This document shows, piece after piece, positions 1,954 through 17,469 of a stretch of 19,507 nt of DNA (position 1 is the first letter of the stretch; each line of letters starts with the position of its first letter). The notes below the pieces were generated by a model. That model worked only from the letters and a program-made list of their open reading frames with translations, was not told where the DNA came from and made no database searches. The position numbers and the translations under genes were made by a program. Source of the stretch: Sulfurimonadaceae bacterium. Lineage in GTDB: Bacteria; Campylobacterota; Campylobacteria; Campylobacterales; Sulfurimonadaceae. Location: contig JBFFUI010000040.1 of assembly GCA_041571435.1 (NCBI GenBank), positions 1 through 19,507 on the forward strand. The letters are read 5' to 3'.

Positions 1954-2000
1954 ATTATAGTATTTAAATGATAGAGTGAGATTATACAAAGGGCTTGAAT

Positions 2001-2429
2001 ATGAAAATAGTGTTAACACTACTGAGTATGCTCTGCTCTTTGATGGCGGCTGATGCAGCCGTTGCTGCGAAGTTGTTGGGATACGAAAGCGATTATCAAA
2101 CAGCCGTTTCAAAAGCAAAGCAAGAGAACAAGATGGTCCTGATGGTCATTGTCCAGGACCCTTGTCGCTACTGCGATCGTCTGGTGAAGGAGACATTGTC
2201 AACGCCCTGTGTCCAAAGACGAATGAAACACTTTGTCCCACTTATCGTTGACAAACACAGTGACTACCCTCGACAGTTCAAGCCGCCGATGATACCGATG
2301 AGTTTCATCGTGGATCCGGTGCGTGAAGAGGTGACGTTTGAGATCGTTGGTGCGATACCGTTCAAAGAGTATATTCATGATCTCGAGACCGAGATAGAGT
2401 TTCGGGATATCGAAGATACAGGCAATTGA
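2001..2429 (+). CDS. Exported thioredoxin-fold protein (SoxW/Thioredoxin_7-like), CRYC active site
   Basis: Signal peptide MKIVLTLLSMLCSLMA, then AVSKAKQENKMVLMVI..DPCRYC and cis-Pro loop MIPMSF. ATG 2001 is preferred over TTG 1995 because of spacing from the AAAGGG RBS. Confidence 0.85.
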   Translation: MKIVLTLLSMLCSLMAADAAVAAKLLGYESDYQTAVSKAKQENKMVLMVIVQDPCRYCDRLVKETLSTPCVQRRMKHFVPLIVDKHSDYPRQFKPPMIPMSFIVDPVREEVTFEIVGAIPFKEYIHDLETEIEFRDIEDTGN

Positions 2430-2446
2430 TTTTAAGGAGAAGATAG

Positions 2447-2893
2447 ATGTTGGATTTAACAATAACAGCAGGCAAGATCGGTGAATTCCCGCCAGTGACC
2501 AAACCGCACCCCGGTTTTTTGTATGAGGTTGGCGAAGAGCGTTTCCGAGAATTGGTGAATGATCACTATGAGATGATCCGTGAAAGCGACATCGCAAACC
2601 TCTTCCCGGTGGACGATGAGGATTTTGCAGAGGCACAAAAGCATGCGCAGGACTTTCTTATTCAGATCTGCGGCGGGCCGAACTACTTTGAACAGACCCG
2701 CGGTGAAGCACGTATTGTCGGCCGTCATGCACCGTTTCGTATAGACGAAGAGGGGCGCCAGACATGGTTACGTCTTTACAGCTACCTGCTTCCGGACCTT
2801 CTCGATGAGGGGATCACGGAGGAGTATGTCCAGTCGTTCTGGAACTATCTCGACCTGCACTCCATCTGGATGATCAATACACCAAGCCGATAA
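2447..2893 (+). CDS. Truncated (2/2) haemoglobin, group II-like
   Basis: FLIQICGGPNYF..RG..RIVGRHAPFRID...W pattern with proximal His and G8 Trp. AAGGAG RBS upstream. Confidence 0.88.
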   Translation: MLDLTITAGKIGEFPPVTKPHPGFLYEVGEERFRELVNDHYEMIRESDIANLFPVDDEDFAEAQKHAQDFLIQICGGPNYFEQTRGEARIVGRHAPFRIDEEGRQTWLRLYSYLLPDLLDEGITEEYVQSFWNYLDLHSIWMINTPSR

Positions 2894-2903
2894 ACTCTCT
2901 TTA

Positions 2904-2939
2904 GACTTAAAGTCCTTGTCTAATCAAGGGACTTTAGTC
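2904..2939. terminator. Stem-loop after the globin gene (terminator or REP-like palindrome)
   Basis: GACTTAAAGTCCTTG-tctaat-CAAGGGACTTTAGTC imperfect inverted repeat starting 11 nt after the stop. Confidence 0.6.
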
Positions 2940-2993
2940 GCAGACAAAAACTAACCCGATAGACTATAATAATGTTAACACGTCAAAGGACAT

Positions 2994-3512
2994 ATGATGA
3001 AAAAGATTATTGTGTTTTTAATGATGGCCGTTATGGTTTTCGGTGTGGAACTTACCGTGGACAAAAAAGCTTCATCAGTCGGTTTTGAAGCAACACAGAT
3101 GATGTTTATAAATGTAGAAGGCAGTTTCAACGACTTCAGTGGCACAATCACCGTACTGGGCGATAAGATCACCGCCATCAATGGTGAGGTAACTGTCCTT
3201 TCGCTGAAGACAGACAATGAACGGCGTGATGATCACCTCTTAAGCAGTGACTTTTTTGATGAGGTGAAGTACAAATCGATTATCTTTAGATCCACAAAGA
3301 TCACAGGTAATACTGTCGTAGCGGACATCACGATAAAAGATATTACAAAACCTGTCACCTTTACAATGGAGAAGATCGAGGTCAGTGAAACAGGTGTGAA
3401 GATAAAACTCAGCGGTGTTGTCGATCGCACGGCCTTCGATATAGACAACAGCTTTATGAGTACGATAGTCTACGATAATATCGATGTTATGTCGACACTG
3501 ATCGCCAAATAG
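2994..3512 (+). CDS. yceI: YceI-family periplasmic lipid/polyisoprenoid-binding protein
   Basis: Signal peptide, SSVGF, VEGSFNDFSGTI, SLKTDNERRDDHLLSSDFFD, ITIKDITKPVTF and VDRTAFDI. TATAAT at 2965-2970 and an AAGGA RBS. Confidence 0.92.
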   Translation: MMKKIIVFLMMAVMVFGVELTVDKKASSVGFEATQMMFINVEGSFNDFSGTITVLGDKITAINGEVTVLSLKTDNERRDDHLLSSDFFDEVKYKSIIFRSTKITGNTVVADITIKDITKPVTFTMEKIEVSETGVKIKLSGVVDRTAFDIDNSFMSTIVYDNIDVMSTLIAK

Positions 3513-3591
3513 ACACGACGTTACCGAGTTACCGACTGACTCAGCTGATTTGCTCTTAGGGTCATCTTTACACAATGACTCCACGCTTACA

Positions 3592-3600
3592 TGATATAAT
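3592..3600 (+). promoter_or_regulatory. Extended -10 promoter (TGnTATAAT)
   Basis: TGATATAAT ending 37 nt before ATG 3638. Confidence 0.6.
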
Positions 3601-3637
3601 CTCACCATAAATTCGTATGTTGAGAAGGAAATCCTTA

Positions 3638-4027
3638 ATGAAAAAATTGTTCCTGCTGTTATTGTTTCTAAGCTCTGCACTCTTTGCTGATCTGAATTGG
3701 GCAGAAGATTATGAGACAGGACTGGCCCAAGCCAAGAAAGAGAACAAAAAAGTGATGCTTATGTTTACGCTTAGTGCCTGTCAAGTATGTGAGAAGATGA
3801 AAGAAGAGGTCTACACGCAAAAGAAAGTAATGGACTATGTCGAGAAGTACTTTGTCCCGATCGAGCTTAACCTTGACCTTGATGACAAAGAGGGGTTTGA
3901 GGTTTTTGGAACGCCGACGTTCTACTTCCTGGACAGTAATGGAAAACAGATCGGCGACGTCAAGATCGGCGGTTCAACAGTGGAAGGCTTTATGAAAAAG
4001 CTTAAAGAGATACAGGCGGCCAAGTAA
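3638..4027 (+). CDS. Exported thioredoxin-fold protein, CQVC active site
   Basis: AAGGAA RBS then MKKLFLLLLFLSSALFA signal. W..DY..GL..AKKENKKVMLMF....CQVC and GTPTFYFLD. Confidence 0.88.
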   Translation: MKKLFLLLLFLSSALFADLNWAEDYETGLAQAKKENKKVMLMFTLSACQVCEKMKEEVYTQKKVMDYVEKYFVPIELNLDLDDKEGFEVFGTPTFYFLDSNGKQIGDVKIGGSTVEGFMKKLKEIQAAK

Positions 4028-4122
4028 AAAGCCTGAAGAGATTTAGGAACAAAACCGCTGTTTTGTCTTTCTGTTGTTTTTGCTTGCGTTATAATAAAAC
4101 CGAGAAGAGGAGGTTTGACTCT

Positions 4123-4512
4123 ATGCATAAATATCTATTGATCCTTGTTTTTGTGGCAACATCGCTTTTTGCTGATATTAAATGGGCAGAAGATTACAAG
4201 TCTGCGCTCAAAGAGGCAGAAAAAGTGAACAAAAAAGTAATGCTCGTTTTTACAGATGAGAATTGTGAAGAGTGTGAGGCGATGCGTAAAGCGGTCTTCA
4301 CTGATGCAGAGGTGTCAAAGTTGGCAAACAGCCGTTTTGTATCTGTTGAGATCGATGTCGAATATGACGGCAGAAAAGGCTATAAAGTCTTTAAAACACC
4401 GACATTCTACTTTTTAGACCCTAAGGGCAAGCAGATCGGAGATGCAGTGGTCGGCGCCTATGATGCTGCGGCATTTTTAGCAAAACTCCAAGAGATAGAG
4501 CAGAGTAAATAG
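4123..4512 (+). CDS. Exported thioredoxin-fold protein, CEEC active site (tandem paralog of the preceding gene)
   Basis: TATAAT at 4090-4095 and GAGGAGG RBS before ATG 4123. Signal peptide, CEEC and KTPTFYFLDPKGKQIG. Confidence 0.88.
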   Translation: MHKYLLILVFVATSLFADIKWAEDYKSALKEAEKVNKKVMLVFTDENCEECEAMRKAVFTDAEVSKLANSRFVSVEIDVEYDGRKGYKVFKTPTFYFLDPKGKQIGDAVVGAYDAAAFLAKLQEIEQSK

Positions 4513-4545: not shown

Positions 4546-4812
4546 ATGACAAAAACCGAAGAACTTATCGACCTGCTGAACAATGACATCATTCCTGAGA
4601 TCGAAGACGTCATTGATGGACTTTTTGAACTGATTAACGATGCAAAAACGGCGACAGACGCGGACAAGCAGGAGCTCAATGAGTTACAGGAGCTTAAAAC
4701 CGAGTTTAAAATGATGTTAGAAGAGGCGATGAGCGGCGAACTTGAAGAAGATGAAGCTGCCGAGATCCTTGACGAGATCGAAGAGATGCGCACAGAGGCC
4801 GAAGAGGCGTAA
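4546..4812 (+). CDS. Small, highly acidic helical hypothetical protein (88 aa)
   Basis: GAGGA RBS and TAAAAT at 4515-4520. 31 of 88 residues are D/E versus 6 K/R. Confidence 0.8.
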   Translation: MTKTEELIDLLNNDIIPEIEDVIDGLFELINDAKTATDADKQELNELQELKTEFKMMLEEAMSGELEEDEAAEILDEIEEMRTEAEEA

Positions 4813-6102
4813 TTACCCTTTCTGCAGCATGATGAGCTTCTCTTTTTGAGAACGGCTCATTTTCTTAACTTCTATCTCCCTTTTCAAAGCAGCGCTTTTC
4901 GAGCGCTGCCTCTCCTCATAAACCAATTTAACAGGACGGCGGGCTTTGGTGTATTTGGCACCTTTTGGCGAACGGTTATGGTCGTCTACCCGTTTGTTGA
5001 CCTCTTTGGCAATGCCGGTGTAATACGTGTTGTCGGCACACTCTACAATATAGAGCGAATAAAACGCGTCGTCTTCAAGCTCGATCGTATTATTAAAAAA
5101 CGTCATCCCTGTTCCGGTAGGAATCTTTTTATAGAGCAGGGGACTGTCGAGATCGATATAGCTGAAGGCGTCGTTGTAGGCCATGACGAGTTGGGCTGTA
5201 AGGGCTATGGAGGTCGGTCCCTCCAGCATCGAACCCATCATACACTTTACCCCCTTTTGTTGACAGTACACTATGATCTCGATCGCTTTGGAGATGCCCC
5301 CGCACTTCATCAGCTTAATATTGATAAGATCGGCGGCGTTCTCTTCGATGACTTTTTTGGCATCGTCCAGTGTAAAGACAGCTTCGTCAGCCAAGATGGG
5401 AATAGTGCTTTGTTGCGAGATGATCTTGAGCCCTTGAATATCACTGCCGAGCACAGGCTGCTCGATCAACTCGATTTGCAGCGGTGCAATGGCTTTAATG
5501 ATCTCCAGCGACTTGTCCACACTCCAAGCCTGATTGGCATCAATAAGCAGACGGGCTTCGGGAACAGCTTCTCTGACAGCAGTAATACGGTCCGTATCAA
5601 GTCCATCTTTGCCGCCGACCTTGACTTTCAGGATCGTATAACCGTGCCCGAAGGCGGACAAGGCATCATCCGCCATCTCTTTCGGGCTTTTGAGACTGAT
5701 GGTGACAGCCGTCTCAAGAGGTTTTGGCAGGGAACCTAAAAATTCGACCAGGCTACTGTTCTGCGCCGCCGCCGCAAGATCGTAGAGTGCCATGTCGACC
5801 GCCGACTTGGCACTGCTGTTGCCGTCGCAGCAAGTGTGCAAGATCTCCAGAACCCTGGGGAGGTTGAATGCCTCTCCGACCAGTTTCGGGGCGATACGCT
5901 TTTTGATCGTCCGGGAGATGCTGTCGAGATCTTCGCCGGTGATGGCTTTGGTCGCAGGCGCGCCGCCATACCCTAGATGGGGCGTGTCCGTATGGATACA
6001 GACGCGAACGTTTTCAACATCATCCACTCTGCGCAACGCCGTGATAAAAGGGGTCTGAAGTGGAATCTTTTCGATCTCCAGTGTGATACCCGTGATGATC
6101 AT
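4813..6102 (-). CDS. L-Ala-D/L-Glu dipeptide epimerase (enolase superfamily) fused to a C-terminal GIY-YIG (UPF0213/YhbQ-like) nuclease domain
   Basis: Epimerase motifs PFITALR, LKVKVG, DANQ, IEQP, ADE, NIKLMKCGG and DLD. Residues 347-429 read YIVECADNTYYTGI..R...HN..GAKYTKARRPVKLVY....ALKREIEVKKM. Single open frame with ATGA coupling to the upstream gene. Confidence 0.9.
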   Translation of the reverse strand: MIITGITLEIEKIPLQTPFITALRRVDDVENVRVCIHTDTPHLGYGGAPATKAITGEDLDSISRTIKKRIAPKLVGEAFNLPRVLEILHTCCDGNSSAKSAVDMALYDLAAAAQNSSLVEFLGSLPKPLETAVTISLKSPKEMADDALSAFGHGYTILKVKVGGKDGLDTDRITAVREAVPEARLLIDANQAWSVDKSLEIIKAIAPLQIELIEQPVLGSDIQGLKIISQQSTIPILADEAVFTLDDAKKVIEENAADLINIKLMKCGGISKAIEIIVYCQQKGVKCMMGSMLEGPTSIALTAQLVMAYNDAFSYIDLDSPLLYKKIPTGTGMTFFNNTIELEDDAFYSLYIVECADNTYYTGIAKEVNKRVDDHNRSPKGAKYTKARRPVKLVYEERQRSKSAALKREIEVKKMSRSQKEKLIMLQKG

Positions 6103-7235
6103 ACCGCGACAGCCTGCAGGATGTAGCCGATGGCAAGCCCGGCAAATGTGCCTATCATGTAGCCCATGATCGCCATCAAAACAGCGATACCGATCAGAGA
6201 GCGGTGGTACGCTGCAGCCAGAATAGGAGCCGATGCAACCCCGCCGATGTTGGCAAGCGAGGCGACACCGATACTGAAGAGGTCAAGCTTGAAGAGCTTG
6301 GCGACGACGGTCATGATTAGGGCATGCAACAGCAGGATAAGCAGACCAATACCAAGGTAAAGCGGCACTTCACTAAAACCGCGAAGGTGGGCCTGCGAAC
6401 CGATAAGCGCAATTAGAACCATCAGCATTGCACTGGCGAGTGCGGGTGAGCCGGCAACACTTTTCAAGGGGGTGCGTGAACCCAGCAGACCAAAGAACGT
6501 GGCGAAAAGGACACTCCATGTCGTCTTGGAAAGTCCGCCCAACAGAGATGCAAGGCTGTTACTGAGGTAGGCTACGGCAAGGGAGACGATAAACAGAAGC
6601 ATCAGGTTGAGAGGGTTAAGGGGGTGCTTTTTTTGCTCTACATCTTCGTCCACCGTTTTAAAGCGCAGCGGTGCCTTGGTCCAACGGTTGAAGATCGGGG
6701 CAAAAGCGACCAAGAAAAGCAGGGTCATCACCCAGAGGGTGTAGTCGATGGAGTCGACGATAAGTGCGTACCCCATCAGCTCTTCACGTACATCAAGTGC
6801 CGCCGCAACAGCGAGCATATTGGCCGTACCGCCCGTCCAGCTGCCCGCAAGTGTGGCAAACACGCCGGCGGCATCCAGGTCCAGTGAGAAGAGCCAGAAG
6901 AGTGCGACGAATGCGATGGCGAGCGAGAGTACCGATGCGACGTAGGCGATAATAAGCGATCGCCCGAGACCTGCAAACGCTTTGAGATCGATCTGCAACA
7001 GCATAACAAAGAGCATGGCCGGCAGAAGAACCGTTTTAACGCTTTTATAGCTGTCTCGGATGGGCGTACTCTCCTGCCAAAAACCGAGTTGGGCCAATCC
7101 CATAGCGGCTGCATAGATCAGGACGACTGCAGGCAAGAAGGTGAACAATCTGTGTTTTGTGCTCTTCTCAACTGCACCAAAGAGTGCAGCAAGCAGGGCA
7201 ACAGTGAAGAGGTATAGAAGCGGGGACGTTATCAT
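6099..7235 (-). CDS. DUF819-like multi-pass membrane protein (putative transporter)
   Basis: About 10-11 hydrophobic segments and two Gly-rich motifs, GSWTGGTANM and SLANIGGVASAP, typical of DUF819. ATGA overlaps on both sides. Confidence 0.8.
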   Translation of the reverse strand: MITSPLLYLFTVALLAALFGAVEKSTKHRLFTFLPAVVLIYAAAMGLAQLGFWQESTPIRDSYKSVKTVLLPAMLFVMLLQIDLKAFAGLGRSLIIAYVASVLSLAIAFVALFWLFSLDLDAAGVFATLAGSWTGGTANMLAVAAALDVREELMGYALIVDSIDYTLWVMTLLFLVAFAPIFNRWTKAPLRFKTVDEDVEQKKHPLNPLNLMLLFIVSLAVAYLSNSLASLLGGLSKTTWSVLFATFFGLLGSRTPLKSVAGSPALASAMLMVLIALIGSQAHLRGFSEVPLYLGIGLLILLLHALIMTVVAKLFKLDLFSIGVASLANIGGVASAPILAAAYHRSLIGIAVLMAIMGYMIGTFAGLAIGYILQAVAV

Positions 7236-7876
7236 CTGCAGGGCGCTTGTTTAAGTTCAGGCAGAGCCTTGTTGAGTTTATGCATAAACGCTTTACCCGG
7301 GTCCTCTTTTTCCGTGCGATACTCTCTGTCTCTCTCCAGCCAGAGAGGGGTATTCTCAAAACAGCGATAATCCGAGTGACCGATAAGGTAGTCGATAGTG
7401 TTGTATTTTTTTGTAAGATAGGTGATGAGCGCGATGTTGGCTTTGAGCTGTCTCTCTGTCAGCGTACCGAGATTTCCGACATTTTCAATACCGATACTGC
7501 TGTAGTTCAGACCGATGACGTGCCGACCCATCCAGTTGTCGGGCATGAGTTGATAGATGGTCCCGTCTCGGTCGATCAGGTAAGCAACAGAGACATTGGC
7601 ACTTACACTGTTGCCGGAGATGTCTTTACGGCTTGAGGGCAGCTCCTCACGGTCAAAGGCGTCAAATGAGCCCTGCAGCGTCGGTATGGCAGTATAGTGG
7701 ACAACGATAATTCTTGGCGTAATCGTGATCGTTTCGGGAGACAACCCATAATGCTGACGAATATAGTCGCGTGTCAGCCCTTGACGATGCTCACTGAATT
7801 TAATAGGTTTTTGGATGATCTCTACAGCGTAGATAATGTTTGTTAGAGTAAAAAATGCAAGTATTAATTTAATCAT
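7232..7876 (-). CDS. Exported N-acetylmuramoyl-L-alanine amidase (Amidase_2/AmpD/PGRP fold)
   Basis: IVVHYT, YLIDRDGTIYQL, HVIGLNYSSIGIENVG, LIGHSD and KEDPG supply the Zn ligands H/H/D and the catalytic Glu. A signal peptide starts at MIKLILAFF (ATG 7876). Confidence 0.88.
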   Translation of the reverse strand: MIKLILAFFTLTNIIYAVEIIQKPIKFSEHRQGLTRDYIRQHYGLSPETITITPRIIVVHYTAIPTLQGSFDAFDREELPSSRKDISGNSVSANVSVAYLIDRDGTIYQLMPDNWMGRHVIGLNYSSIGIENVGNLGTLTERQLKANIALITYLTKKYNTIDYLIGHSDYRCFENTPLWLERDREYRTEKEDPGKAFMHKLNKALPELKQAPCR

Positions 7877-7882
7877 AGGGTG

Positions 7883-7933
7883 ATTATATAGAGTCGAAGC
7901 TATAAAGAGGGTTAACATAAATCATACTATAAT
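7883..7933. promoter_or_regulatory. Divergent -10 boxes (minus-strand TATAAT 7883-7888; plus-strand TATAAT 7928-7933)
   Basis: Two perfect TATAAT hexamers pointing outwards in the 88-nt gap between divergent genes. Confidence 0.6.
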
Positions 7934-7964: not shown

Positions 7965-8348
7965 ATGGTAAGAATTGAAAAACGTTCGATTATGAGGCGT
8001 CCCAGTGAAGATGCCGTAAAACTGGCAAACAGCATCTATTTTACGGCTATCCAATCGGGTGAAGATTATGTCTACATCGCACTGAATCAGCTTTGCAGAC
8101 TCTTTAATCTTTGCAATGAACCGGATATGAAAGCGCGCATCACCGAACTGTTGGAAGAGTTACGTGAACCGGTAGCCGTCGAAAACTTTACCTATCAGCG
8201 TAAAGAGATAAAGTGGAAGGCAATGAGTTTTATCAGTTACACATTTAAAACCGAAAGCGATCAGGAGTATGTCGATATCCACCTTGACAAGATGTTTATC
8301 GAAGTGATGTCGCAATTAGAAGCCGAACCTTACATTAACTTTCAATAA
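7965..8348 (+). CDS. Hypothetical protein resembling the N-terminal winged-helix (WH1) domain of Rep_3-type replication initiators
   Basis: GGAGG RBS and its own -10 support the gene. The fold call rests only on a by-eye hydrophobic and secondary-structure pattern. Confidence 0.6.
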   Translation: MVRIEKRSIMRRPSEDAVKLANSIYFTAIQSGEDYVYIALNQLCRLFNLCNEPDMKARITELLEELREPVAVENFTYQRKEIKWKAMSFISYTFKTESDQEYVDIHLDKMFIEVMSQLEAEPYINFQ

Positions 8349-8386: not shown

Positions 8387-9133
8387 ATGGCAAAATATGT
8401 TATTTTAGACACCGAGACTACCGGCGCAGCAGAGAATGACAGGGTCATTCAGTTAGGCTATATGGTCTTAGGTGCCAAAGAGGTGGAGATCCATAACGAG
8501 CTCTGCTCAGCCGAAGTGCCGATTACGATCGGTGCGATGGAGGTCCACAACATTACGCCGGAGATGATCGAAGGGAAGCCGCCGTGCCGGGAGATCAACG
8601 CTTACAAGCGTCTTCTCGAGCTCAACACGCCCGACAACTACATGATCATTCACAATGCACCGTTCGATATCGGTATGCTTGCGAAAGAGGGCTTTTCACT
8701 TGACATGAAACTGATCGATACGCTGCGGGTGGCGAAACATGTCTTTCCCGATTCGGAGTACCACCGTCTGCAGTATTTCCGTTATTCACTGGAGCTTTAC
8801 AAAGAGGAAGAGGCCGAAGCGGCAAAGCTTGGCATAGAACTCAAAGCGCATGACGCCTTGGGCGATGTCCTCTTTTTAAAACTGCTGTTGTCAAAGTTGC
8901 GCAAGGCGGTGCAGGAGAAGTTCCCGGGCGAGAATGATGTAGAGAAGATGGTGTCGTTGACGCAGCAACCTGTATTTATCACCAAACCGATGCGTTTTGG
9001 AAAGCACAAAGGCAAAACGATTCAGGAACTGGCCCATGAAGATGCCGGTTACCTGCGCTGGATGATGGAAAACATGCAGAACCTTGACGAAGATACGCGC
9101 TACACCATCCAAATGGTTTTGCAAGGCAGCTAG
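8387..9133 (+). CDS. DEDDh 3'-5' exonuclease, exonuclease X-like, with C-terminal FGKHKG domain
   Basis: ExoI LDTETTG, ExoII HNAPFD and ExoIII AHDALGD, plus C-terminal MRFGKHKGKTIQEL....GYLRWM. TATAAT at 8351-8356. Confidence 0.9.
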   Translation: MAKYVILDTETTGAAENDRVIQLGYMVLGAKEVEIHNELCSAEVPITIGAMEVHNITPEMIEGKPPCREINAYKRLLELNTPDNYMIIHNAPFDIGMLAKEGFSLDMKLIDTLRVAKHVFPDSEYHRLQYFRYSLELYKEEEAEAAKLGIELKAHDALGDVLFLKLLLSKLRKAVQEKFPGENDVEKMVSLTQQPVFITKPMRFGKHKGKTIQELAHEDAGYLRWMMENMQNLDEDTRYTIQMVLQGS

Positions 9134-10915: not shown

Positions 10916-11911
10916 ATGAGAGCAAACGAGATTGCGAGTTCATTAACGGCCATGATCAAGGCACAGATCCCGGCATTTATCTGGGGACCCCCGGGTATCG
11001 GTAAATCATCGATCGTGAAACAGATTGCCGAGGCCAATGCGTATGGGTTTATCGACCTGCGCCTCGCTTTGATGGATCCTACCGATCTTAAAGGGATCCC
11101 ATTTTATGACAAAGAGGCGCATCAGGCACTCTGGGCCCCGCCGTCATTCCTGCCGCGTGACGGTGAAGGGATCCTGTTTTTGGATGAGCTGAACTCTGCT
11201 CCGCCGGCGGTACAGGCCTCAGCCTACCAGCTGATACTGGACAGAAAAGTAGGCGAGTACACACTGCCGGAGGGGTGGGCGATCGTTGCTGCAGGAAACC
11301 GCGAAGGAGACCGCGGTGTTGTCTACCGAATGCCGTCGCCTTTGGCAAACCGTTTTGTCCATCTTGAGATGGATGTCAATGTGGAAGATTGGCGTGACTG
11401 GGCCTATGAGAGTAACCTTGACGAACGTGTGATCGCCTACATCGGTTATAAAAGCGATGACCTTTTCTCGTTTGATCCGACACAGAATGAAAAAAGTTTC
11501 GCAACACCCAGAAGCTGGGAGTTTGTAAGTTCCGTTCTTCAAAGCGGCATGGATGAAAAGCTGCTCTTGGAGACCATCGGCGGTGCTATCGGTAAAGATC
11601 GGGCCGTACGTTTTTTGAGTTTTGCCAAAGTGATGCACAGACTGCCCGATATCGAGGCGATACTTGAGAGCGGCAACGGTGCGTACCCGGAAGAGGTTGA
11701 TGTGCTGCATGCCCTGGCGACCGGTCTGGTCATGGCGATCATCAAAAATCCTTCGAAAGAGCGGATGGATAACCTCTTGAACTACACCCTCGAGCTGCAG
11801 AGTGAGTTTTCGGTGATGGTGGTGCAGGACCTGCAGCGCGCCGGTTTCACGATGGAAGAGCAAAAAGCCTTTGACAAATGGGTCGGCAAGTTTGCTTATC
11901 TACTTGCATAA
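10916..11911 (+). CDS. MoxR-type AAA+ ATPase
   Basis: Walker A IWGPPGIGKS, Walker B LFLDE, sensor VAAGN, PLANRF Arg finger and TPRSWE. TATAAT at 10887-10892 and an AAGGA RBS. Confidence 0.92.
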   Translation: MRANEIASSLTAMIKAQIPAFIWGPPGIGKSSIVKQIAEANAYGFIDLRLALMDPTDLKGIPFYDKEAHQALWAPPSFLPRDGEGILFLDELNSAPPAVQASAYQLILDRKVGEYTLPEGWAIVAAGNREGDRGVVYRMPSPLANRFVHLEMDVNVEDWRDWAYESNLDERVIAYIGYKSDDLFSFDPTQNEKSFATPRSWEFVSSVLQSGMDEKLLLETIGGAIGKDRAVRFLSFAKVMHRLPDIEAILESGNGAYPEEVDVLHALATGLVMAIIKNPSKERMDNLLNYTLELQSEFSVMVVQDLQRAGFTMEEQKAFDKWVGKFAYLLA

Positions 11912-13113
11912 TGACACCGCAGCTCAAACAAAAAGTCTCTGAGGCCAAGGCAAAACTACTTGTCGATTATCCGTACTTCGGTACATTGGCCTCCAAACTT
12001 GAACTGACCTCCAATGACAATATCCAGGCCTATCTGAGCGACGGTGTTCGTTTTGAATACAACGACGACTACCTGTTGGATCTCACCCAGGATGAACTCG
12101 CTTTCGCTCTTTCCAACGGGGCAATGCATGCTGCTCTGGCCTACGAGAACCGTCAGAAAGGGCGGATGTCATGGCTGTGGCAGTTGGCGACGGACTACGC
12201 CATCAATACGATGTTGGCCGCCAACGGCCTGGAGCCGCCGATGGAGATCGTGCTTGACCCCCGGTTTGAAGGGATGTATGCCGAAGAGATCTATGCGATC
12301 TTGAAAGATGAGATCCAAAATGAAGAGTTTGATGACAACGAAACGAACGAGACAGGTTTTAATGAGGAAAACAAACGTCGTCAGGAGCAGATGCGAAACG
12401 CCGAAGGTGACCATGACCCGGACAAAAAACGCGAGCAGTTGCAGGTGGAGAACCAGGAACAGAAACAGCTGATCGCCCAGGAGGAGATGTTTGATCAGTT
12501 CGCCAACGAAGCGTTGGAAAAGATGGAGCTTCACGGCAACCTTCCTCTGGAGATCGAACGCTTCTTCAACATCTCCGACAGCTCTAAAACGGACTGGCGC
12601 CAAGAGCTCTATCGTGCCATAGACAGACACTACTATGACAACTACCGCATGATGCCGCCGTCGAAGAAGCTGCTGTACAGCGGGGTCTACCTCCCTTCGC
12701 TCTACAGCGATACCTTGCGTTTGAGTATTGCCATCGACAGCTCCGGCTCAGTCGATGAATCGCTGCTTTCGACGTTTATGAGCGAGATCGAAGCGATACT
12801 TGTCCATTTTCCCAACTACATCATCGACCTGATCGTCTGTGATGCCAAGATACAGAGCCATCGGCAGATCATAAGTGGCGACCCTCTGGATGTGGATATC
12901 AAAGGTGGAGGCGGTACGGATTTCCGGCCCGTGTTTTCCTTGATCGAGGAGAATCTGGATGCACCATCACTCCTGTTATACTTCACAGACACCAAGGGAA
13001 GCTTTCCTGAAGCCGAACCTTTTTATGAAGTCATCTGGATAAGTGATGCTGAAAACGAGGTACCGTTTGGGGAGGTACTGGTTATCGAAAAGATGCAAGC
13101 GGAGCTCTTGTAA
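11911..13113 (+). CDS. DUF2201-type protein: N-terminal metallopeptidase-like domain (degenerate) plus C-terminal vWA domain
   Basis: TAATG coupling to the ATPase. PYFGTL and WQLATDYAIN in the N-terminal part, an acidic linker, then MIDAS IDSSGS, GGGGTDFRPVF and LYFTD. Confidence 0.88.
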   Translation: MTPQLKQKVSEAKAKLLVDYPYFGTLASKLELTSNDNIQAYLSDGVRFEYNDDYLLDLTQDELAFALSNGAMHAALAYENRQKGRMSWLWQLATDYAINTMLAANGLEPPMEIVLDPRFEGMYAEEIYAILKDEIQNEEFDDNETNETGFNEENKRRQEQMRNAEGDHDPDKKREQLQVENQEQKQLIAQEEMFDQFANEALEKMELHGNLPLEIERFFNISDSSKTDWRQELYRAIDRHYYDNYRMMPPSKKLLYSGVYLPSLYSDTLRLSIAIDSSGSVDESLLSTFMSEIEAILVHFPNYIIDLIVCDAKIQSHRQIISGDPLDVDIKGGGGTDFRPVFSLIEENLDAPSLLLYFTDTKGSFPEAEPFYEVIWISDAENEVPFGEVLVIEKMQAELL

Positions 13114-13120
13114 GTTCGCT

Positions 13121-13300
13121 CTACTCCAACCCCTTCTCTTGGTAACATTTATCGATACGCTGGTCTATTGCCATCTCCCGGCTGTTACTGTTTTCGACGC
13201 CGTTTAGAATGAAGTAGCCCGTAACGAACATAAAAACCAACCCTATCGAGATAATAGCGGTCGTCATATAGAGATTGCGTTTGTTTGGATCAAACGTCAT
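13121..13300 (-). CDS. Small single-TM protein (59 aa), not in the ORF track
   Basis: Manual translation gives MTFDPNKRNLYMTTAIISIGLVFMFVTGYFILNGVENSNSREMAIDQRIDKCYQEKGLE*. AAGGAG RBS just upstream, and it fills the gap between two genes. Confidence 0.75.
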   Translation of the reverse strand: MTFDPNKRNLYMTTAIISIGLVFMFVTGYFILNGVENSNSREMAIDQRIDKCYQEKGLE

Positions 13301-13396
13301 TGATTCTCCTTCTATAATGTACTTCCTATAAGCATAGACGCTTTTTCGTTGATAATCTTTGATAAAATACAGTTAACTAAAAATATAAAGATTCTG

Positions 13397-14683
13397 ATGT
13401 CTGAACACGAACGTATTACTTCTTTACTGGATGCAAAACAGAATGTCTTTTTGACCGGAGGTGCCGGTACCGGAAAGACGACCTTGACACGCAAGGTTAT
13501 CGACCACTACGAGGGTGAAGGCAAAAAAGTCGCCAAGCTGGCTTCGACGGGTATGGCGGCGACGTTGATCGGCGGGCAGACACTTCACAGTTTTTTAGAC
13601 CTTGGTATCGCCGACTCTATCGAAGAGCTGGAGCAAAAAGGGAAGCTCGAGATCAAAAATAAGACAAAAAAACTAATCGCTTCGATGGATTTGATCATTA
13701 TCGATGAGATCTCGATGGTGAGTGCGCCGCTTTTTGAGATGATACGGCTGCGGCTGCTGCAGAGTGACTTTAAGGGGGTCCTTTTAACAGTAGGGGATTT
13801 TCTGCAACTTCCTCCGGTGGTGCGAGGTTATGGCGAGATCAATTTTGCCTTTGAATCTGAAAGCTGGCAGCGGTTCGATTTTAGTACGATCACTCTGGAG
13901 ATAAACCATCGCAGTGACGACAGGGATTTTGTAAAGGTGCTCGACAGAGTGCGGTTCGCTGAAGTGGGGGATGCCGAGCACTACTACCTGCACCACCTTA
14001 TCAAGCCCATCGGTGAAGACCTGAGCCAATACACCTACCTTTACGGCAAAAACTATTCGGCCTCGCGTCACAATGAAGCCCAGCTGGCCTTTATCGACAG
14101 TGATGAGGTGGTCTATGAAGCACAGCTGGTGAAGCATGATAAAAACTCGACAGAAAAAGAGATAGAGCGGTTCTATCAGGATGCACGGATCGAACCACAA
14201 CTCAGACTCAAGGTGGGGGCCCCGGTCCTATTTACACGCAATGCCTGGAACTATTTTAACGGCGAACGTGGACGCATCGTACGGCTTAGCGACGAGACCG
14301 TTTTTGTTGAAAAGAGTGATGGGACTGTCGTGAAGCTCGAACGCGCTTCAATGGCGAAGACGCAGTGGAAAGAGAGGACGACCGAAGGTAAAAAGGAGAT
14401 GGTGGAAGAGGCCAAGTTCAGTCTGCATCAATTCCCGATCGCCCTTGCGTTTGCCATTACCATTCACAAATCCCAGGGGATGAGCATCGAAGACCTTATT
14501 ATAGAGACAACCGAGATCTTCGCCCCCTCGCAGTTCTACGTGGCGCTGTCGCGTGCGACATCACCGCACAGGCTGATCTTAAAACAGCCGCAGACAAACT
14601 GGTGCAACCTCGCCTTCGTTAATGGCAAGGCACTGAACTTTGTGCTGGGGCACTGCAAAGGAGAACAAGATGCCGGACAATAA
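13397..14683 (+). CDS. pif1: Pif1-family SF1B 5'-3' DNA helicase
   Basis: FLTGGAGTGKT, GGQTLHSF, IIIDEISMV, GDFLQLPPV, QFPIALAFAITIHKSQGMSI and YVALSRA. ATG 13397 is preferred over TTG 13349 because TGATAAAAT at 13360-13368 looks like the promoter. Confidence 0.9.
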   Translation: MSEHERITSLLDAKQNVFLTGGAGTGKTTLTRKVIDHYEGEGKKVAKLASTGMAATLIGGQTLHSFLDLGIADSIEELEQKGKLEIKNKTKKLIASMDLIIIDEISMVSAPLFEMIRLRLLQSDFKGVLLTVGDFLQLPPVVRGYGEINFAFESESWQRFDFSTITLEINHRSDDRDFVKVLDRVRFAEVGDAEHYYLHHLIKPIGEDLSQYTYLYGKNYSASRHNEAQLAFIDSDEVVYEAQLVKHDKNSTEKEIERFYQDARIEPQLRLKVGAPVLFTRNAWNYFNGERGRIVRLSDETVFVEKSDGTVVKLERASMAKTQWKERTTEGKKEMVEEAKFSLHQFPIALAFAITIHKSQGMSIEDLIIETTEIFAPSQFYVALSRATSPHRLILKQPQTNWCNLAFVNGKALNFVLGHCKGEQDAGQ

Positions 14684-14864
14684 AAAGAATCGACGCTTCA
14701 GGACCTTGGAAGAGCTGCAGGAAGAGTACAACGAAGAAGAACATCACCTCAAAGGTGAGCTTAACGATATCTGGAAAAACCTGAAAGCGCAGATCTTTTC
14801 TATGTGGGGCATGTTGATACTCTCGGCATTGACGCTGGCCATACTTTCGGCAATAGTACGCTAA
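14670..14864 (+). CDS. Small C-terminally anchored membrane protein (64 aa)
   Basis: AAGGAG RBS before ATG 14670, overlapping the helicase end. Charged N-terminus and one C-terminal TM helix. Confidence 0.7.
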   Translation: MPDNKKNRRFRTLEELQEEYNEEEHHLKGELNDIWKNLKAQIFSMWGMLILSALTLAILSAIVR

Positions 14865-14914
14865 CTTATTAATATAGTTGTGTTACTATAAATCAAACAA
14901 TGTGAGGAGTGAGT

Positions 14915-15502
14915 ATGGGTTATGTTTTTCTTGGTATATTGGTTTTATTGGGGCTCTATGCGATTGCTATATATAACAATCTGGTGGCAAAGAAAAATCA
15001 GATCGATAATGGTTTTGCCCAGATAGAGGTGCAGCTAAAACGTCGATATGACCTTATCCCAAATCTTATCGAAGTGGCAAAAAAGTATATGTCGCATGAA
15101 AGAGAGACCCTCGAAGCGGTTATCGCAGCACGTAATGAAGCCTCTGCACTGCTTTCAAAAGTCGAAGGCGCGCTGGACAACCCGAGTGCTATGGCACAGT
15201 TCAATGAAGCGGAACAGGGGCTGGTCGGTGCGATGGGCAAGATGAACTTCGTCATGGAGGACTACCCTGAGCTTAAAGCCAATGAGAACATGATGCAGCT
15301 TACCGAAGAGCTAACCACAACAGAGAACCGTATCGCCTTCGCCCGTCAGGCTTTTAATGACTTCGTGCTCGCGTTTAACACCTATCGTCAATCATTCCCG
15401 CAAAATCAGGTCGCCAACATGTTCGGTTTTACGACCGATGCCAAGATGCTCGAGTTTGAAGACTCCAAAGCGATTCAGGCCGCGCCTAAAGTCAGCTTTT
15501 AA
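14915..15502 (+). CDS. lemA: LemA family protein
   Basis: N-terminal TM, YNNLV, IEVQLKRRYDLIPNL, EDYPELKANENM, TENRIAFARQAFND and FP. GAGGAG RBS before ATG 14915. Confidence 0.95.
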   Translation: MGYVFLGILVLLGLYAIAIYNNLVAKKNQIDNGFAQIEVQLKRRYDLIPNLIEVAKKYMSHERETLEAVIAARNEASALLSKVEGALDNPSAMAQFNEAEQGLVGAMGKMNFVMEDYPELKANENMMQLTEELTTTENRIAFARQAFNDFVLAFNTYRQSFPQNQVANMFGFTTDAKMLEFEDSKAIQAAPKVSF

Positions 15503-15522
15503 TCTCAGCCAGTATCTGAAAT

Positions 15523-17469
15523 ATGAACTTTTTTCAGGAGCAGGCACGTTCGCGTCAGCATACATTCTGGCTGGTGATCATCTTCATCATCGCGGTATTA
15601 GTGCTGATCGGCGTGACCATACTTTTTGTTATCGGCTTGTACCTCTATATCAATGAGATCCCGCTTGCCAACTTTCTGAACGCCCCATTTGTGTATGTCG
15701 GTCCCCGTATCTATTACGGTGTCATTATTACTGTAATCGGTGTCGTTGCCGGCGGGTCGCTCTTCAAGTACCTCTCCCTCGCAAGCGGCGGCAAAAATGT
15801 TGCCATCGCGCTTGGCGGGCGGCAGCTAAACCGCAACAGTGCAGATGCCAAAGAGAAGATGCTGTTGAACGTTGTCGACGAGATGGCAATCGCCTCAGGT
15901 ATCTCCACACCTACAGTCTATATCTTGGATGAAAACGCTATCAACGCGTTTGCGGCAGGACTGACACTTGATGATGCTGTTATCGGTATCACAACGGGTG
16001 CGGTAGAGAAGCTTGACAGGGAAGAGCTCCAAGGGGTGATCGCCCATGAGTTCAGCCATATTTTTAATGGTGATATGCGTCTGAACCTGCAATTGACAGC
16101 AACCCTTCACGGCATACTGCTGATCGGACTGATAGGTCGGTTTATCCTGCGTTCAATGTCCCGCTCATCATCACACAGTTCGCGATCCTCAAGCAACAAA
16201 AAAGGCAACGGCGGGCTCTATATTCTTGTCTTGGGCTTAGGGCTTTTTGTCATAGGCTATGCTGGTACCTTTTTCGGCTCAATCATCAAGGCCAATGTCA
16301 GCCGAAAACGAGAGTACCTGGCAGATGCGACAGCGGTCCAGTACACTAGGTACCCGCGCGGGATCAGCGGCGCGCTCAAAAAAATCGCGTACTACAGTTC
16401 ACGTCTGGATGCGCCGGCCGCAGCAACCTACAGCCATCTCTACTTTGCCGAGGGAATCCGTACGATGTTCAGCTCTCTGATGGCGACTCATCCACCTTTG
16501 GAGGAGCGCATCAGAAGGATCGAGCCGCGATGGAGCGGCCGTTTCCAAAACTATGAGCAGCACAAAGTCCCAGAGCCTGAAGCTCCTGAACCCAAGCCTG
16601 AAAAAGAGGATAAAAAAGAGCGCTTTGTCCAGGGGGCGATCGCAGCTGCGATGATGCGTGTCGGGCAGATCAAAGAAGAAGCGGTTGAGCAGGTTGAAGT
16701 GGAGATCAAGGCGCTGGATGCCAAGGTACTGGAGCGCCTTAACGATCCGCTTGGGGCACAAGCCGTACTGTTATCGCTGCTGTACAACCCTGACCATAAA
16801 GAAGCGCTTTTTACCAAGGTTAAAGAAGAGAACCCTTATCTGCTGCTGGAGTTTGCAAATCTTCTAAAAGAAGGTCATACCGAACTCAAACAGCAGAGTG
16901 CCCTGATCGTCGCACTCAGTCTCAATGCACTTAAAAGCCTCTCTATCGAACAATACCAGCGCTTCATGACGATAGTGCAGACCTTTATTACTGCTGATCA
17001 GCATGTCTCACTGTTTGAGTGGAGTCTGCAGTATATCATTCAGCGTCCGCTCGAGATGCACCTCGGTATCAAAAAGGTCCCAAAGAGTCGGTACACGCAT
17101 CTGGGCGCGATTAAAGAGGAGGTCGAAGTACTTCTCTCTATGCTGGCGCAAGCCCAGTATGAGAATGAAGATCAAGCCAAAGAGTCCTTTGACAAGAGCA
17201 AACAGGCGATCCGTGCGGGTGCATTACAGTATCGTCTACGAGAGACGATATCGCATGAGGCTTTTGTGCATGCAGTGCAAGCTATAGAGATGGCCAAACC
17301 GGCTATTTCCGAACGCATCTTTGAAGGGGTCCTTTATAGCATTAAGATCGATGGTAAAGTGTCGCAGGCAGAAAACGCCTTTGTGCATGCTATCGCACAA
17401 CTGATCCAGGTACCGATGCCCCGCGAGTTCAAGTTGCAGGAGAGCGACGATAACACAGAAGGAAAATAA
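15523..17469 (+). CDS. M48 (HtpX-like) membrane zinc metalloprotease with a long C-terminal extension containing TerB-like motifs
   Basis: INAFAAG, VIAHEFSH, REYLADA and THPPLEERI. C-terminal ADQHVSLFE and IDGKVSQAE motifs. Confidence 0.9.
   Translation: MNFFQEQARSRQHTFWLVIIFIIAVLVLIGVTILFVIGLYLYINEIPLANFLNAPFVYVGPRIYYGVIITVIGVVAGGSLFKYLSLASGGKNVAIALGGRQLNRNSADAKEKMLLNVVDEMAIASGISTPTVYILDENAINAFAAGLTLDDAVIGITTGAVEKLDREELQGVIAHEFSHIFNGDMRLNLQLTATLHGILLIGLIGRFILRSMSRSSSHSSRSSSNKKGNGGLYILVLGLGLFVIGYAGTFFGSIIKANVSRKREYLADATAVQYTRYPRGISGALKKIAYYSSRLDAPAAATYSHLYFAEGIRTMFSSLMATHPPLEERIRRIEPRWSGRFQNYEQHKVPEPEAPEPKPEKEDKKERFVQGAIAAAMMRVGQIKEEAVEQVEVEIKALDAKVLERLNDPLGAQAVLLSLLYNPDHKEALFTKVKEENPYLLLEFANLLKEGHTELKQQSALIVALSLNALKSLSIEQYQRFMTIVQTFITADQHVSLFEWSLQYIIQRPLEMHLGIKKVPKSRYTHLGAIKEEVEVLLSMLAQAQYENEDQAKESFDKSKQAIRAGALQYRLRETISHEAFVHAVQAIEMAKPAISERIFEGVLYSIKIDGKVSQAENAFVHAIAQLIQVPMPREFKLQESDDNTEGK

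Follow-up and report, generated by a model that had tools for sequence, protein, structure and literature searches.

A 19,507-nt contig from a Sulfurimonadaceae bacterium (GenBank assembly GCA_041571435.1, contig JBFFUI010000040.1; the whole stretch is referred to here as the window) carries a minus-strand gene in which a dipeptide epimerase of the enolase superfamily is joined, in one reading frame, to a GIY-YIG nuclease domain. The fusion is genuine, is conserved over two related genera, and has a single origin, and both of its halves are kept by purifying selection. In sister genera, the same two genes lie side by side as separate, overlapping reading frames. The fused gene and its parts are as follows:

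4813..6102, minus strand: whole fused gene, 429 codons plus a stop codon at 4813–4815, a single uninterrupted open reading frame (ORF)
5077..6102, minus strand: dipeptide epimerase part, residues 1–342; MLE subgroup of the enolase superfamily, most like the L-Ala-D/L-Glu epimerase YkfB
5065..5076, minus strand: linker EDDA, residues 343–346; acidic, made by the fusion, constant in length and variable in sequence
4816..5064, minus strand: GIY-YIG part, residues 347–429; UPF0213/YhbQ-type, prokaryotic Slx1-like by sequence

Domain structure of the fused gene

The original prediction, drawn from the DNA sequence without database searches, described one 429-aa frame holding an intact Ala-Glu epimerase and a complete GIY-YIG domain, with the nearest Met near the domain boundary at residue 333 (nt 5106). 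ORF analysis, Pfam searches, and an alignment to Bacillus subtilis YkfB bore out these coordinates and motifs. Three Pfam domains scored above their cut-offs in the predicted 48-kDa fusion protein: MR_MLE_N (residues 11–123; 44.6 bits against a cut-off of 22), MR_MLE_C (residues 143–322; 151.9 bits against 29.4; E 2.7e-44), and GIY-YIG (residues 348–421; 47.9 bits against 22.6; E 1.7e-12). In an alignment of fused sequences (n = 53, excluding the fragments P0037 and P0056), R24, K159/K161, D188, E214, D239, K263, and D317/D319 of the epimerase part were invariant in all 53, as were Y351, Y361, R371, H375, and E409 of the GIY-YIG part.

The two domains had been described as joined by a short acidic linker, IELEDDA. 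A short acidic linker is indeed present, but its extent was placed by unfused relatives and by the strands of an AlphaFold2 model at about four residues (E343–A346); the preceding IEL is the end of the last β-strand of the epimerase. The length of the linker was the same in 16 of 16 fused loci. The domains that it connects differ in net charge, which is +11 (pI 10) for the GIY-YIG domain and −10 for the epimerase part.

Conservation and single origin of the fusion

Both domains occurred together in 54 of the best 120 database clusters, at 63–93% identity; the other 66 (≤59% identity) had no GIY-YIG domain and were ordinary epimerases of 327–359 aa. When the relatives were examined at the genome level, a stop-free match spanning the junction was found in 15 of the 16 genomes of the genus, including the source genome, and in the 16th the fusion gene was split at a contig break with overlapping ends. 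Both available genomes (2/2) of a second Sulfurimonadaceae genus (g30) also carry the fusion, so it is not peculiar to the source assembly. At least one carrier is in culture, Sulfurimonas sp. HSL3-7 (P0016), where the gene lies on a 2.87-Mb contig. Among 1.84 billion cluster representatives, a single one matched across the junction, and it stands for the fused clade.

The source assembly consists of 66 contigs, and a sequencing or assembly error that erased a stop codon or a frameshift lying between two separate genes would produce the same apparent architecture. Such a stop or frameshift was looked for at the junction and none was found. Contigs from three other studies span positions 5060–5110 with substitutions only and no gaps, and no insertions or deletions were seen in positions 4700–6200 among the contigs of relatives aligned there. 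The same open frame recurs in other genomes of the genus, in the second genus, and in the 54 protein clusters, which come from several sources. Nothing was found in favor of an artefact; it is refuted by these independent assemblies, and its probability is negligible.

The phylogeny of the epimerase supports one fusion event. In a tree of 40 rows, all 14 fused rows formed one clade with support of 100/98; this tree excluded L016 and L021, which have no epimerase, and L023–L029, which come from a second collection and are probably the same species as genomes already included. The reciprocal view was obtained from 80 loci of GIY-YIG relatives. Seven had an upstream epimerase, and all seven were Sulfurimonadaceae-type metagenome-assembled genomes in which the epimerase match continued, without a change of frame, into that to GIY-YIG; in the 73 loci from other phyla, there was no epimerase within 3 kb. 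The proposal that the fusion is lineage specific is thereby upheld, with one clade and two Sulfurimonadaceae genera.

The architecture was also said to be undescribed, and no description of a dipeptide epimerase, or of any enolase superfamily member, combined with GIY-YIG was found in the literature searched. A 2006 survey of GIY-YIG proteins contains no mention of an epimerase or a racemase (PMC1564403). The combination is visible in public annotation, for example as an automatic double name from JGI and as "enolase C-terminal domain-like protein" at NCBI. The GIY-YIG domain was already known for promiscuous fusions, and the epimerase adds a new partner to them.

Identity of the epimerase half

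The best sequence match to residues 1–339 in the PDB was B. subtilis YkfB (1jpm/1tkk; E 1.9e-62 for 1jpm), and other solved dipeptide epimerases were also matched (3jva, 3q45, 3r0k, and 2zad). A Foldseek comparison of the AlphaFold2 model with 1jpm gave a template modeling (TM) score of 0.90 (target-normalized) and a root-mean-square deviation of 2.0 at 40% identity. The N-terminal capping domain and the C-terminal modified TIM barrel typical of the fold are both present, as judged by the Pfam cut-offs and the match to 1jpm. Alignment to YkfB paired K159/K161 with K160/K162, K263 with K268, D188 with D191, E214 with E219, D239 with D244, D317/D319 with D321/D323, and R24 with R24. In YkfB, we take the KxK motif and the second Lys to be the acid/base pair and the Asp/Glu/Asp set to be the metal ligands; the DxD motif after the last barrel strand presumably binds the ammonium group of the dipeptide, and Arg24 the Glu side chain.

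The NCBIfam equivalogs for Ala-Glu epimerases scored far under their cut-offs (NF041118, 193.2 against 500 bits; PRK15129, 130.1 against 343), and the DgcA racemase model scored almost equally (189.4 against a cut-off of 400). The name used here therefore stops at dipeptide epimerase; from its sequence, the N-terminal half is most safely called a dipeptide epimerase that is probably of the L-Ala-D/L-Glu type.

Identity of the GIY-YIG half

The sole significant PDB matches to residues 340–429 were 1zg2 (E 7e-16) and 1ywl (E 2e-12), both hypothetical UPF0213 proteins, and an NCBIfam search with the GIY-YIG part alone returned no family. No Asn downstream of E409 is invariant in the 53 fused sequences. 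Absence of a C-terminal Asn is tabulated for the prokaryotic Slx1-like cluster in the 2006 survey (PMC1564403), and that survey and a second source assign the YhbQ/YazA group to the Slx1 cluster as its prokaryotic branch (PMC1564403; PMC7017083). The C-terminal half is accordingly classified, on sequence criteria, as a member of UPF0213/YhbQ, the prokaryotic Slx1-like GIY-YIG group. What the fused domain does not share with this group is its standalone size of about 80–130 aa (most of the 149 other top cluster representatives were 79–134 aa long). Both halves were expected to occur normally as separate proteins, and the unfused relatives of the epimerase together with the standalone UPF0213 proteins agree with this. 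No report of nuclease activity for bacterial UPF0213 members was found in the literature searched.

Outside the fusion gene, the genome holds a single GIY-YIG domain, carried by a 603-aa frame that is probably UvrC; the fused copy is the sole UPF0213-type gene of the genome. A homing endonuclease of the I-TevI type was considered as a different identity for the domain and rejected: there is no NUMOD or further domain, the neighbors are housekeeping genes, and the closest relatives are UPF0213 proteins.

Predicted synthesis as one protein, and selection on both halves

Of the 46 junction codons of the source gene, that of Met333 (nt 5106) alone is an in-frame ATG, GTG, or TTG, and Met333 had been raised as a possible start for a separate nuclease product. 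Over the 16 fused loci, codon 333 was ATG in one (the source genome), TTG in three, and not a start codon in 12; position 333 is Leu in the relatives' contigs aligned across the junction. All 46 junction codons were free of in-frame ATG, GTG, and TTG in 10 of the 16 loci. No Shine-Dalgarno-like motif was seen upstream of Met333 in the window. Met333 was consequently rejected as a separate start, being neither conserved nor preceded by such a motif. With no conserved internal start and only one UPF0213-type copy in the genome, the nuclease domain would have to be produced as the tail of the 429-aa protein and in no other form.

Median pairwise ratios of nonsynonymous to synonymous substitution (dN/dS) over 11 loci were 0.067 for the epimerase, 0.112 for the GIY-YIG domain, and 0.275 for junction codons 339–347. 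Of the 55 possible pairs, only those with 0<dS<3 were used (37 for the epimerase, 48 for the GIY-YIG domain, and 24 for the junction), and the 5'-truncated locus L011 was excluded. The fusion had been described as possibly accidental. This wording fits its origin but not its present state, in which both halves are under purifying selection.

Probable origin from overlapping neighboring genes

Separate, co-oriented, and adjacent epimerase and GIY-YIG genes were found in eight genomes from three sister genera: g10 (G024, G107, G091, and G102), g3 (G017, G055, and G069), and g6 (G082). At the three junctions examined, the start of the GIY-YIG gene overlaps the stop of the epimerase gene in another frame, by 4 nt (ATGA) in G017 and G082 and by 11 nt in G024. 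Because the genes overlap by a few nucleotides in different frames, a small insertion or deletion suffices for fusion. In the fused sequence, EDDA is flanked by segments that align with the C-termini of unfused epimerases on one side and with the N-termini of unfused GIY-YIG proteins on the other. Together with the fused loci and genomes in which the two genes are unlinked, these examples complete the range of arrangements among relatives: fused, adjacent and overlapping, and apart. Of several read-through matches, in which the alignment crossed the stop codon into residues 345–372, two were rejected as cases of adjacency; in G060, there is no GIY-YIG gene in the flank of the epimerase, and in G267, the GIY-YIG gene is on a different contig.

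The epimerase tree places the g10 clade as sister to the fused clade, with moderate support (87/75). The GIY-YIG tree (80 columns, 46 rows) has 3 of 43 branches well supported and agrees with the grouping of g10 and the fused clade as sisters. The adjacent state requires at least three changes on the epimerase tree, and the GIY-YIG tree is compatible with one or with several origins of that state.

These arrangements suggest a simple route to the fusion. In the ancestor of the two Sulfurimonadaceae genera, a YkfB-like epimerase gene most likely stood last in an operon of the order Amidase_2–DUF819–epimerase, with an Slx1/YhbQ-type GIY-YIG gene just downstream whose start, in a different frame, overlapped the epimerase stop by a few bases. 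The frames were then most likely joined by a small insertion or deletion, which left the four-residue acidic linker and took away the start codon of the nuclease gene.

Relationship between the two activities

Within the family, each gene is found without the other. In genus g33, the GIY-YIG gene was present in 54 of 66 genomes and the epimerase in none of the 66, bar one weak partial match (E 1e-6). Conversely, at least 11 genomes have the epimerase and no GIY-YIG match, six of them 99–100% complete. In g2, the largest genus, 48 of 48 genomes (those with both matches listed, compared by hand) have the two genes on separate contigs or with at least 74 kb between them. The GIY-YIG gene occupies at least five other genomic contexts within the family, often with short overlaps. 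Separation was also seen close to the fused clade: in G075 and G084 of g10, a gene of about 1030 codons with a secreted product lies between the epimerase and GIY-YIG genes (L108 3083–6184; L110 2976–6068), and in the closest relatives of these genomes, the two genes overlap. In g6, G082 has the GIY-YIG gene in the slot beside the epimerase gene, and G020 lacks it there.

Elsewhere, GIY-YIG domains of this type occur joined to UvdE, UDG, Vsr, dUTPase, Exo_endo_phos, MTS methyltransferase (20 of 87 matches, counted as clusters), TP_methylase, and YgjP-like proteins, and further partners are cpYpsA, ORF6N, DUF429, DUF2441, LuxS, nitroreductase, HAD, PNPOx, and Asp/Glu racemase. One-off fusions of this kind may reflect mobility of the domain and not functional partnership, as noted in the 2006 survey (PMC1564403). 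The fusion to an Asp/Glu racemase (PF01177; P0126) comes from one metagenomic cluster on one 5-kb contig and may be due to chance or error.

Because each gene occurs without the other, the contexts vary, and the fusion partners are promiscuous, the balance of evidence tips against the epimerase and the nuclease being obligately linked in function. We favor, with a probability of roughly 0.6, the interpretation that two translationally coupled neighbors underwent a fusion that is tolerated and that their activities are independent. The N-terminal part would epimerize L-Ala-D-Glu-type dipeptides freed from peptidoglycan, and the C-terminal part would perform the same nucleic-acid-cutting housekeeping role as standalone UPF0213 proteins. 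Being harmless and ensuring that both halves are co-expressed, the fusion would persist, with the basic domain packed on the acidic epimerase and no mutual regulation.

Several observations weigh against independence. The overlapping adjacency of epimerase and GIY-YIG genes recurs in three further genera, which goes beyond a one-off neighborhood, and the fusion has outlasted divergence to 62% identity with a constant linker length. The AlphaFold2 model has a predicted local distance difference test (pLDDT) score of 96.2 overall and about 90 through the linker. Its predicted TM score (pTM) is 0.93, compared with a ceiling of about 340/429 = 0.79 if the last 89 residues were unplaced; pTM is the model's own confidence and was aided by the 53 fused sequences in the alignment. 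The model thus suggests a defined interface between the domains, which a neutral fusion does not require. In addition, the part played by the UPF0213 domain as an independent housekeeping nuclease is one that we infer.

These same observations are the ones on which a functional coupling would draw. Under this explanation, the nuclease works with the epimerase or is controlled by it, via oligomerization of the TIM-barrel enzyme, which would gather several GIY-YIG domains, or via dipeptide binding that alters access to the nuclease site, and the fusion would fix an interaction already present between translationally coupled neighbors. The overlapping, co-oriented genes in eight genomes of three genera and the fusion in two more are consistent with such an interaction, as are purifying selection on both halves after fusion, the constant linker in 16 of 16 loci, and the confident, rigid arrangement in the model. 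A parallel is offered by eukaryotic Slx1, whose nuclease activity requires the noncatalytic partner Slx4 (PMC4407285; PMC7017083), and a scaffold might similarly be needed by a minimal bacterial domain of 80 aa. However, coupling has to contend with the occurrence of each gene alone, the inserted gene in G075 and G084, the empty slot in G020, the other contexts of the GIY-YIG gene in most genera, the lack of any association outside the family (73 loci, other phyla), and the variety of fusion partners elsewhere. A complex prediction for the neighboring epimerase and GIY-YIG proteins of G024, run without controls, gave scores of 0.08 and 0.23, against a mark of 0.32, which speak neither for binding nor against it. 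Since the genes occur apart, the GIY-YIG gene has varied contexts, and its domain type has many other partners, the earlier suggestion that the dipeptide or epimerase oligomerization controls the nuclease is not supported, and we regard coupling as unlikely. A specific form of it, by analogy with Slx4, is that an oligomeric epimerase might serve as a scaffold that assembles, and perhaps gates, a weak minimal Slx1-like nuclease; this we consider doubtful indeed.

Presence and absence at the same slot within g6 (G082 and G020), at least five contexts in one family, and many unrelated fusion partners could reflect a selfish or mobile GIY-YIG cassette, which would be semi-autonomous and would insert beside host genes and occasionally into their ends, with one insertion having become fixed. 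The 2006 survey remarks on how exceptionally mobile the domain has been in evolution (PMC1564403). Nevertheless, nearly all genomes have one copy, the fused domains group together with a branching order that matches the epimerase tree, and purifying selection is strong. There is no DNA-binding or NUMOD module and there are no mobile-element genes nearby, and the closest relatives are UPF0213 proteins and not homing endonucleases. A mobile cassette is very improbable on this evidence.

A role for the GIY-YIG domain in RNA metabolism, or a purely structural one, would depart from the housekeeping role considered above. Fusions to tRNA/rRNA-type methyltransferases led to the suggestion, in the 2006 survey, that this type of domain acts in RNA metabolism (PMC1564403); the MTS fusions counted above are in line with this, and the packing of the domain on the enzyme in the model would suit a structural role. 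A structural role, however, would not demand that the catalytic residues be invariant in 53 of 53 sequences. The domain is also strongly basic, and other partners are DNA-repair enzymes (UvdE, UDG, Vsr, dUTPase, and Exo_endo_phos), which argues against either role, and we consider such a reading very improbable. A tolerated fusion with independent activities remains the interpretation that we prefer.

Genomic neighborhood

The fusion gene is the last of three minus-strand genes that overlap by 4 nt, in the order Amidase_2, DUF819, fusion, and it faces a small convergent gene:

6099..7235, minus strand: DUF819 membrane protein (Pfam E 2.7e-79), whose stop overlaps the epimerase start (ATGA)
7232..7918, minus strand: Amidase_2 protein (N-acetylmuramoyl-L-alanine amidase; Pfam E 1.5e-20) with a hydrophobic N-terminus, first gene of the apparent operon
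4546..4812, plus strand: 88-aa acidic protein with a weak AF0941-like Pfam match, convergent, its stop abutting that of the fusion gene

The order of DUF819 and epimerase genes was kept in every family locus opened (L013, L014, L019, L020, L022, L117, and L119), and the arrangement with Amidase_2 was also found in L022. The DUF819 protein is a candidate peptide transporter. Judged by their family names, the amidase, which would release the stem peptide, the membrane protein, and the epimerase, acting in the cytoplasm, would make up a coherent operon for murein-peptide salvage.

The 88-aa protein contains 31 Asp and Glu residues and has a net charge of −25 and a pI of 4.05. Loci of g3, g6, and g10 have its gene next to the epimerase/GIY-YIG slot (co-directionally in g10), and it is also present in G020, where the GIY-YIG gene is absent; none was seen beside unlinked GIY-YIG genes. 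Divergent from the amidase–DUF819–epimerase operon on the plus strand are a small ORF (7965–8348) and an ExoX-like RNase_T exonuclease gene (8387–9133). The exonuclease gene adjoins the DUF819 gene in L013, L014, L020, and L107, making a DNA exonuclease a conserved neighbor of the cell-wall cluster with or without the GIY-YIG gene.

The remainder of the window holds two further plus-strand groups. Positions 1995–4512 encode three paralogous secreted thioredoxin-like proteins (1995–2429, 3617–4027, and 4063–4512), amid which lie genes for a bacterial-like globin (2447–2893) and a YceI-like protein (2994–3512). In positions 10916–17469, a gene for an AAA (MoxR-like) ATPase adjoins one for a DUF2201 metallopeptidase/VWA protein, followed by a PIF1-like helicase gene and a pair encoding LemA and an M48 peptidase.

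Unlinked GIY-YIG genes of the family were seen in settings of their own. In g7, g8, and g28 (L129, L133, L138, and L136), the gene follows adenylate kinase; in g7, it also has aspS upstream and an rpsU-like gene downstream, a housekeeping context of translation and nucleotide metabolism. In g33 (L124, L130, L131, L132, and L142), it belongs to another conserved block, in which it is divergent from a gene of about 273 aa and an NAD-synthetase-like gene, and it overlaps the start of a gene for a 251-aa membrane protein that is followed by a 197-aa gene.

Implications and comparison with known systems

UPF0213/YhbQ proteins are among the most widespread small bacterial nucleases of unassigned role. 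The fused clade ties this domain to a well-understood and easily assayed enzyme, with at least one cultured carrier, and so offers a handle for biochemistry. It also provides a clean, datable case in which overlapping stop/start junctions turn operon neighbors into a fusion, with the intermediates persisting in sister genera. For "Rosetta-stone" inference, it is a caution, since conserved adjacency and fusion coexist here with phyletic independence. If coupling were true, it would link peptidoglycan recycling to nucleic-acid processing, with cutting tied to cell-wall turnover in sulfur-oxidizing bacteria; we know of no precedent for such a link. If the epimerase were a scaffold, this would be the first hint of what activates the UPF0213 nucleases of bacteria.

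Four known systems bear comparison with the fusion protein. With YkfB (1jpm and 1tkk), it shares the two-domain enolase-superfamily fold, the KxK motif, the D/E/D ligands, the second Lys, the DxD motif, and Arg24, as well as a muramoyl-L-alanine amidase gene in the neighborhood; it differs in bearing an 83-residue C-terminal GIY-YIG domain. With standalone UPF0213 proteins (1zg2 and 1ywl), the shared features are a minimal domain of about 80 residues, the conserved Tyr, Tyr, Arg, His, and Glu, and the lack of a conserved C-terminal Asn. Those proteins, however, are separate products of about 80–120 aa, whereas the domain described here has no start of its own and forms the tail of an enzyme. 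Eukaryotic Slx1–Slx4 has a homologous catalytic domain, but the fusion protein has neither a RING/PHD domain nor Slx4, and a scaffold role for the epimerase in its place is speculation.

The closest parallel in evolutionary terms is the methyltransferase (COG4123/MTS)–GIY-YIG fusion of Lactobacillales, which, in the 2006 survey, is likewise fixed in a clade and has standalone adjacent pairs in relatives (PMC1564403). Its partner is an N-methyltransferase of nucleic acid or protein, and a joint role on nucleic acids is plausible. Here, in contrast, the partner would act on a dipeptide of the cell wall, and the pairing does not reappear beyond a single family.

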